Assembly: GCF_054482595.1 (NCBI RefSeq)
Contig: NZ_CM137008.1
Direction: 5' to 3' (one strand)
Length of the DNA stretch: 64,000 nucleotides
The position numbers and the translations under genes are program-made. This document shows positions 9,832-13,992 of the stretch, piece by piece. The notes below the pieces were generated by a model that worked only from the letters and a program-made list of their open reading frames with translations, had not been told where the DNA came from and did no database searches. Positions within the stretch are counted from its first letter, which is position 1; each line of letters starts with the position of its first letter.

Positions 9832-12722
<2,891 letters not shown>

Positions 12723-12807
12723 CGGATTTTATCCTGTTATCAGTAGGGTAGATGTAGTTGTTATCAGTCGACGTGACGGAAAAATGCCGATGCTGAAACG
12801 GAATTAG

Positions 12808-12819
12808 GAAACCGGTTTC
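12808..12819. promoter_or_regulatory. Perfect 12-bp palindrome GAAACCGGTTTC, candidate AscG (LacI/GalR-family) operator
   Basis: Exact palindrome in the ascF-ascG divergent intergenic region; LacI-family operators are short palindromes of this kind. Confidence 0.55.
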
Positions 12820-12881
12820 ACAAAATCATGAATAGTTGTCACTAAATAAGCAAGAGAGTTAATTGTTCATTTTTTATATTT

Positions 12882-12895
12882 GTGAAACCGGTCAC
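12882..12895. promoter_or_regulatory. Second candidate AscG operator half-palindrome (gtgaaaccggtcac)
   Basis: Shares TGAAACCGGT with the palindrome about 74 bp upstream; lies just upstream of the ascG start. Confidence 0.45.
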
Positions 12896-12981
12896 CTGAA
12901 TATTTTTCCCGCCGATTGCGCAAGGACAATCGGCAAACGGTGCAGTACACTGCGTTGATTGCGTGTAAAGGGATGAAAATG

Positions 12982-13992
12982 ATGACGACGATGCTGGAAG
13001 TGGCGAAGCGCGCCGGGGTTTCAAAAGCGACCGTTTCCCGCGTGCTTTCAGGTAATGGCTACGTCAGCCAGGAGACTAAAGATCGCGTGTTTCAGGCGGT
13101 AGAAGAGAGCGGTTACCGCCCAAACTTGCTGGCGCGCAATCTGTCGGCGAAGAGTACTCAGACGCTGGGGCTGGTAGTGACCAACACGCTTTACCACGGC
13201 ATTTATTTTAGTGAATTACTCTTTCATGCCGCGCGAATGGCGGAAGAGAAAGGGCGGCAGTTGCTATTGGCAGATGGTAAACACAGCGCCGAAGAAGAGC
13301 GCCAGGCGATTCAGTATCTGCTGGATTTGCGCTGCGACGCCATTATGATTTACCCGCGTTTTTTAAGCGTGGATGAGATCGATGACATCATTGACGCGCA
13401 CAGTCAGCCGATAATGGTGCTTAATCGCCGCCTGCGCAAAAACAGCAGCCATAGCGTCTGGTGCGATCATAAACAGACCAGTTTTAACGCCGTGGCAGAG
13501 TTGATAAACGCCGGGCATCAGGAGATTGCTTTCCTTACCGGCTCGATGGATTCCCCCACCAGCATTGAACGTCTTGCCGGGTATAAAGACGCGCTGTCGC
13601 AGCATGGTATTGCGCTCAATGAAAAACTTATCGCTAACGGTAAATGGACACCTGCCAGCGGGGCCGAAGGGGTAGAAATGTTGCTCGAACGTGGGGCTAA
13701 ATTTAGCGCGTTAGTTGCCAGTAACGACGATATGGCGATAGGTGCGATGAAAGCGTTACACGAGCGCGGCGTAGCGGTGCCAGAGCAGGTGTCAGTTATC
13801 GGATTCGATGATATCGCAATTGCCCCCTATATCGTTCCGGCGCTCTCCAGCGTAAAAATTCCGGTGACTGAGATGATTCAGGAAATTATTGGACGGCTGA
13901 TTTTTATGCTCGATGGCGGGGATTTCTCACCGCCGAAAACCTTCAGCGGAAAACTGATCCGCCGCGACTCACTCATTGCTCTTTCGCGATAA
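12982..13992 (+). CDS. ascG: AscG, LacI/GalR-family repressor of the asc operon (336 aa)
   Basis: HTH LEVAKRAGVSKATVSRVL followed by a periplasmic-binding-protein-like fold; start set at MTTMLEV (ATG 12982), though the adjacent ATG at 12979 or 12973 is possible. Confidence 0.88.
   Translation: MTTMLEVAKRAGVSKATVSRVLSGNGYVSQETKDRVFQAVEESGYRPNLLARNLSAKSTQTLGLVVTNTLYHGIYFSELLFHAARMAEEKGRQLLLADGKHSAEEERQAIQYLLDLRCDAIMIYPRFLSVDEIDDIIDAHSQPIMVLNRRLRKNSSHSVWCDHKQTSFNAVAELINAGHQEIAFLTGSMDSPTSIERLAGYKDALSQHGIALNEKLIANGKWTPASGAEGVEMLLERGAKFSALVASNDDMAIGAMKALHERGVAVPEQVSVIGFDDIAIAPYIVPALSSVKIPVTEMIQEIIGRLIFMLDGGDFSPPKTFSGKLIRRDSLIALSR

Follow-up and report, generated by a model that had tools for sequence, protein, structure and literature searches.

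What controls the ascFB operon and the divergently transcribed ascG in E. coli, and what part is played in this control by two related sequences lying between them? The question arises from a 259-bp gap, positions 12723-12981 of an analysed stretch of 64,000 nucleotides of an E. coli genome (hereafter the window, always at its full length), which separates ascF on the minus strand from ascG on the plus strand. A first-pass annotation had placed in this ascF-ascG divergent region a perfect 12-bp palindrome and, about 74 bp away, a second related site, and had proposed that AscG, as a LacI/GalR-family repressor, uses both to repress by looping. The genes concerned are the following.

9832..11256, minus strand: ascB, 6-phospho-beta-glucosidase (NCBIfam NF007356, 1092.5 bits, cut-off 623), intact.
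11265..12722, minus strand: ascF, PTS cellobiose/arbutin/salicin IIBC component (NCBIfam NF007311, 1029.7 bits, cut-off 722), intact.
12982..13992, plus strand: ascG, LacI/GalR-family repressor of 336 aa (annotated as AscG by RefSeq in identical E. coli records), intact.

NCBIfam and the RefSeq annotation agree on the identity of this region, with ascB downstream of ascF and hydN and hypF downstream of ascG. Many E. coli chromosomes with RefSeq-annotated ascF and ascG carry the 501 bases spanning the gap at 100% identity. AscG matches the PDB entries 3brq and 3dbi and is placed by NCBIfam in the LacI/GalR family. All three genes are intact and differ from their K-12 counterparts by three (AscG), four (AscF, with internal stops absent) and seven (AscB) residues, while the intergenic region differs at 3 of 259 bases. 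Compared with the AscG operators of K-12 ascFB (Ishida, Kori & Ishihama 2009, J Bacteriol 191:6136), this is the same locus, in which the 12-bp core of the first site and the whole of the second are identical; the differing bases are one in the flank of the first site (...TTTCC in the window, ...TTTCT in K-12) and two elsewhere in the gap, and no functional difference is apparent. Activation of the cryptic asc operon of K-12 through an IS186 insertion in ascG has likewise been reported (PMC3505978). The region is present in 4698 of 5426 complete E. coli genomes; the remaining 728 give no match whatever to positions 12600-13100 of the window, and the asc locus is thus accessory, not core, in the species. 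In E. coli strain 04A19CPO007 an IS1 element (L082 2289-2986) is found at the equivalent of window position ~12768/12769, between the first site and the ascF start codon, where it detaches ascFB from the AscG operator, the CRP site and the promoter that normally serve it; the insertion might shut ascFB down or, by way of an outward promoter, switch it on.

In order to follow the control region across species, the AscG protein was used to scan one genome per species, which yielded 80 loci with 66-99% AscG identity from Escherichia, Citrobacter, Enterobacter, Klebsiella, Raoultella, Kluyvera, Leclercia, Lelliottia, Phytobacter, Pseudocitrobacter, Aeromonas, Dryocola and Sodalis. In every one of them ascF is divergent from ascG, across a gap of 192-459 bp (mostly 212-266 bp). 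Conservation figures are given as mean identity to the window over 81 sequences, that is, the 80 loci plus the window itself. The first features needed are these.

12723-12981: whole intergenic region, mean identity to the window 0.55 (81 sequences).
12807..12820, unstranded: AscG primary operator (site 1), GGAAACCGGTTTCA, with a perfect 12-bp core at 12808-12819; assigned from conservation and PMC8667592.

The palindrome GAAACCGGTTTC was confirmed at 12808-12819, and the second site, which reads GTGAAACCGGTCAC at 12882..12895, was likewise found where it had been placed, sharing with the first the 9-mer GAAACCGGT. Palindromicity is a poor guide here, as the window holds 21 perfect 12-bp palindromes against 15.8±4.0 in shuffled sequence, so that the rarity of this one among the 64 kb is not significant by itself; with up to two mismatches allowed, the pattern has six matches in the window and 2.7 are expected. 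The 9-mer is more telling: its copies start at 12808 and 12884, it is confined within the 64-kb window to the ascF-ascG intergenic region, and the chance of a second copy within 259 bp is about 0.002. It is this confinement, together with the conservation of site 1 in 80 of 80 loci, that exceeds chance, and the strong evidence for the sites is comparative and experimental, not the palindrome alone.

Measured against the palindromic consensus TGAAACC|GGTTTCA, site 1 agrees at 13 of 14 positions, including the perfect 12-bp core. None of the 80 AscG-orthologue loci, which range from Escherichia to Aeromonas and Sodalis, lacks it (81 of 81 intergenic regions when the window is included); it takes the form GGAAACCGGTTCCA in most genera and the perfect form TGGAACCGGTTCCA in Aeromonas. 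With a mean identity to the window of 0.92, compared with 0.55 for the region as a whole, the 14-mer at 12807-12820 is one of the two best-conserved 14-nt stretches of the gap. Most of residues 1-53 of AscG, a segment that includes the DNA-binding helix-turn-helix, are shared by 90% or more of the 80 orthologues, and the same DNA specificity is therefore expected throughout. Guharajan et al. (2021) used TGAAACCGGTTTCT from PascF, which is exactly the K-12 form of site 1, as an AscG binding site, and in their synthetic promoters AscG acting through it repressed strongly at +1 and had next to no effect at -61 (PMC8667592). The palindrome is accordingly an operator of AscG, as had been supposed, and the main one on the ascFB promoter. 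The same 14-bp palindromic consensus, 5'-TGAAACCGGTTTCA-3', is that of PtxS, a LacI-family protein of Pseudomonas whose operator lies at or near -10/+1 of the promoters it represses (PMC5902321); nevertheless PtxS is another regulator, with other target genes and with 2-ketogluconate as effector, whereas AscG has no known effector (PMC3505978).

Half-sites of the same kind are found outside site 1. A lone TGAAAC lies in the ascF leader at 12794-12799 (plus strand), at a distance of 14 bp from the half of site 1 that it matches. It is about 0.7 conserved; most genera have it, and the Enterobacter group has lost it by deletion. In the prpR-prpB intergenic region of K-12 (L084 195-245), reported to be another AscG target, four direct copies of TGAAAC follow one another at intervals of 10-12 bp. 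AscG may use such half-site arrays.

To see what AscG would do at site 1, the promoter has to be placed. Between the two sites the alignment in the ascF sense shows a conserved tcTTG (12851-12855), a fixed interval and a conserved cATGAT (12825-12830), which we read as follows.

12848..12853, minus strand: predicted ascFB -35, TTGCTT; the TTG (12851-12853) is 100% conserved in 81 loci, and the 17-bp spacer to the -10 is constant.
12825..12830, minus strand: predicted ascFB -10, CATGAT, conserved at 0.85 across 81 sequences.

From the conserved TTG-N17+3-cATGAT arrangement and its spacing, the ascFB start is predicted near A12818, so that site 1 spans about -2 to +12 of the predicted promoter. 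AscG bound at 12807-12820 would cover the predicted start and block RNA polymerase directly. The ascFB hexamers are weak (7 of 12 consensus positions), and a consensus promoter and terminator scan of 12650-13050 found nothing; both results fit what is expected for an activator-dependent promoter.

The second site points to the activator, and its two layers are listed here together with the conservation of their parts.

12881..12896, unstranded: cAMP-CRP box TGTGAAACCGGTCACC, matching 9 of 10 consensus positions, with its centre at 12888.5, about -70.5 from the predicted ascFB start.
12883..12896, unstranded: AscG-like secondary site (site 2) TGAAACCGGTCACC, matching 11 of 14 consensus positions, nested in the CRP box and specific to Escherichia.
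12882-12885: CRP half-site TCAC, mean identity to the window 1.0 (81 sequences).
12886-12891: CRP spacer of 6 bp, mean identity 0.36 (81 sequences), with 36 distinct spacers.
12892-12895: CRP half-site GTGA, mean identity 0.93 (81 sequences).

The box TGTGAaaccggTCACc at 12881-12896, read as TGTGA-aaccgg-TCACc, departs from TGTGA-N6-TCACA at one position in ten and is the sole match with at most one mismatch in the 64-kb window. A CRP-like site is found in 81 of 81 loci, with no more than two mismatches in 79. Measured to the centre of site 1, it lies 73-75 bp away in 77 loci; in the other four, which carry a clean 10-bp deletion corresponding to one helical turn, the distance is 65 bp. The four are Pseudescherichia vulneris, Escherichia sp. 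ESNIH1, Enterobacter sp. ENT03 and one metagenome-assembled genome (L029, L032, L040 and L041). The centre of the box would thus fall at about -70.5 from the predicted start, and at -60.5 in the four short loci. Class I CRP sites are centred near -61.5 or -70.5/-72.5, as at lac (-61.5) and malT (-70.5). The 10-bp difference preserves the helical face, which is consistent with class I activation; the distance keeps helical phase, and the absolute position of -70.5 depends on where the start is placed. Conserved half-sites, a free spacer and two spacings one helical turn apart are all features of class I cAMP-CRP sites, and a CRP ChIP-seq target matches as well: Haycocks et al. (2015) report, for ascG/ascF in enterotoxigenic strain H10407 (ETEC), the site GGTGACCGGTTTCACA (PMC4287617), corresponding to 12881-12896 read on the opposite strand. 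The second site is primarily a CRP activator box, and what is conserved in it is the pair of CRP half-sites, not the AscG-like core.

That core is nevertheless present in Escherichia. Within the second site, TGAAACCGGT occupies 12883..12892 and contains the shared 9-mer at 12884-12892, and the stretch of 14 bases TTTGTGAAACCGGT reproduces the corresponding arm of site 1 exactly; the right half is poor (GGTCACC), and of the 14 positions of the AscG consensus 11 are matched. The spacer AACCGG on which it depends occurs in 4 of the 81 loci, the window and L002-L004, all of Escherichia type, while eight Kluyvera-like loci have AACCGA or AATCGA; the AscG-like core is missing from all 77 non-Escherichia loci, those of Kluyvera type having a near version of it. 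Variation among K-12, O157:H7, a divergent clade strain and Escherichia sp. E1V33 is restricted to the flanks: neither the 12-bp core of site 1 nor any base of the 16-bp second site changes, and the second site is invariant across five diverged Escherichia sequences. Where the usual CRP site reads TGTGAt...gaTCACA, the spacer and inner flanks of the Escherichia asc site spell an AscG half-site, which would make it a composite site for activator and repressor. One could argue instead that it is a CRP site only, its likeness to an AscG box being incidental and of no use for AscG binding: across genera conservation is limited to the CRP half-sites, the match to the AscG consensus is just 11 of 14, and CRP occupancy in vivo is on record (PMC4287617). 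We regard this as very improbable, since the exact AACCGG would arise in a free 6-bp spacer about once in 4096 per lineage and some 36 spacer variants were sampled, the identity with the arm of site 1 extends over 14 bases, the sequence is invariant in the five Escherichia representatives, and a passage of PMC3505978 citing Ishida 2009 gives two AscG sites at ascFB. The earlier reading of the second site as an AscG site consequently stands in part: that passage agrees with it, but the site is a CRP box first and AscG-like in Escherichia only.

Two AscG-type sites would also be the raw material for a loop, with AscG bound to both and the ascFB promoter closed off between them in the manner of other LacI/GalR-family repressors. 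Their centres, at 12813.5 and 12889.5, are 76 bp apart, close to the 74 bp first given, and flank the predicted -35 and -10; two AscG sites are given in the passage cited above, and dimer-dimer contacts have been suggested to be possibly common among dimeric LacI/GalR proteins (PMC3505978). In the same way, the lac O1/O3 and gal OE/OI loops combine a repressor of this family with two operator-like sites around a CRP-dependent promoter. In contrast to those systems, AscG has no tetramerisation domain: its 336 residues align to residues 5-329 of the 360 of LacI and to positions 6-332 of a 358-position LacI-subfamily profile, and because the alignment stops at about 329-332 of 358-360, the tetramerisation tail is absent, although dimers may touch in some other mode. 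In the study of Meinhardt et al. (2012), the chimera LLhA/Q55A, which joins the LacI DNA-binding domain to the AscG regulatory domain, showed a less than 2-fold dependence of repression on operator spacing, unlike looping-competent chimeras (PMC3505978). The auxiliary site is not conserved either, as its AscG-like core is missing in all 77 non-Escherichia loci although the remaining architecture is kept, and AscG alone at -61 had almost no effect on a CRP-independent promoter (PMC8667592). Helical phasing neither supports nor excludes a loop, because the preferred phase depends on the protein (76 bp corresponds to 7.24 turns at 10.5 bp per turn and to 6.91 at 11.0), and the 76-bp geometry of two operators in E. 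coli is compatible with cooperative binding and does not by itself exclude it. On balance we consider repression by looping unlikely, and this part of the first-pass annotation is not upheld.

We hypothesize instead, with high confidence, that AscG controls the ascFB-ascG region by blocking the promoter at site 1 and by competing with CRP at a composite second site. AscG at site 1 would exclude RNA polymerase; the second site (12881-12896) would serve as the class I cAMP-CRP activator site of the ascFB promoter, about 70.5 bp upstream of the start; and the Escherichia spacer AACCGG would create an AscG half-operator, TGAAACCGG, inside the CRP box, so that AscG and CRP compete for it (anti-activation). 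Repression would then be the sum of promoter occlusion and activator exclusion, and a DNA loop would be unneeded. The sequences and their pattern of conservation come from the present analysis, and the CRP occupancy in vivo and the repression by AscG through the site-1 sequence from the papers cited above, whereas the promoter hexamers, the start and the competition at the second site are what we infer. The near absence of an effect of AscG at -61 on a promoter that does not depend on CRP fits an upstream AscG site that represses only by displacing CRP. The existence of two AscG sites at ascFB is taken from the passage of PMC3505978 that refers to Ishida 2009. AscG sites are curated in RegulonDB and RegPrecise. 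The asc control region is indeed already known, its AscG box, two AscG sites and CRP dependence having been described in 2009 and entered in databases. In that description AscG is said to recognise TGAAACC-GGTTTCA and to have two sites upstream of ascFB; a CRP box reportedly overlaps one of them, and repression is said to come about through interference with the binding of both CRP and RNA polymerase.

The half of the gap that faces ascG holds further conserved sequence, including a candidate promoter.

12923..12951, plus strand: putative ascG promoter, with -35 AGGACA (12923-12928), a 17-bp spacer and -10 TACACT (12946-12951).

Its nGACA-N17-TACACT arrangement is conserved from Escherichia to Aeromonas. 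Over the same range the block GGTGCAGTACACTGCG (12939-12954, plus strand), which precedes the ascG start codon by about 28-43 bp, is 0.93 conserved, which makes it as well conserved as the AscG operator; it contains the near-palindrome GCAGT-AC-ACTGC, and 74 of 80 loci have it exactly once, 37-42 bp ahead of the ATG. The block fits a TACACT -10 placed 17 bp after the conserved nGACA -35. Since its conservation exceeds what a -10 needs, it may be a binding site for a further factor. A sigma-54 promoter was considered for this block and rejected on inspection, as the sequence has GG-N11-GC, one base off the required GG-N10-GC. Overlapping the putative ascG -35 is a perfect 8-bp inverted repeat, GCCGATTG/CAATCGGC, at 12911-12918 and 12927-12934 with an 8-nt loop; K-12 and Escherichia sp. 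E1V33 differ from the window in the loop base, the stem is altered in O157:H7 and in the divergent Escherichia strain SCPM-O-B-8794, and the repeat shows no conservation outside Escherichia. On the other side, the ascF leader carries an exact 10-bp direct repeat, TGTTATCAGT, at 12735-12744 and 12759-12768 (24 bp apart), of which the copy nearer ascF falls within a conserved block of the Enterobacteriaceae, TACCCTACTGATAACAGGAT when read on the ascF strand, which immediately precedes the ribosome-binding site. A hairpin in which 12778-12792 would pair with the ribosome-binding site and start codon of ascF was dismissed, since folding of the predicted leader gave an energy equal to the shuffle mean (z = 0.00), and an Rfam search of the region at E-values up to 1 gave no match.

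The annotation of asc gains a useful correction: the second site is to be described as a CRP box serving also as an AscG site, and not as a looping operator. What is modestly new is the evolutionary point, namely that the operator, the CRP box and the spacing between them are ancient and that the AscG-like CRP spacer is confined to Escherichia, Kluyvera-like loci having a form one base off. It is tempting to go one step further, although we put this forward as a doubtful proposal: an ancestral CRP box may have been rewritten by AACCGG in Escherichia alone into a composite AscG/CRP site, and the anti-activation so added could contribute to the crypticity of asc in E. coli, orthologous operons elsewhere being perhaps more readily expressed. 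The Escherichia-specific AscG-like spacer offers, in any case, a simple handle on the tightness with which the cryptic asc operon is silenced.
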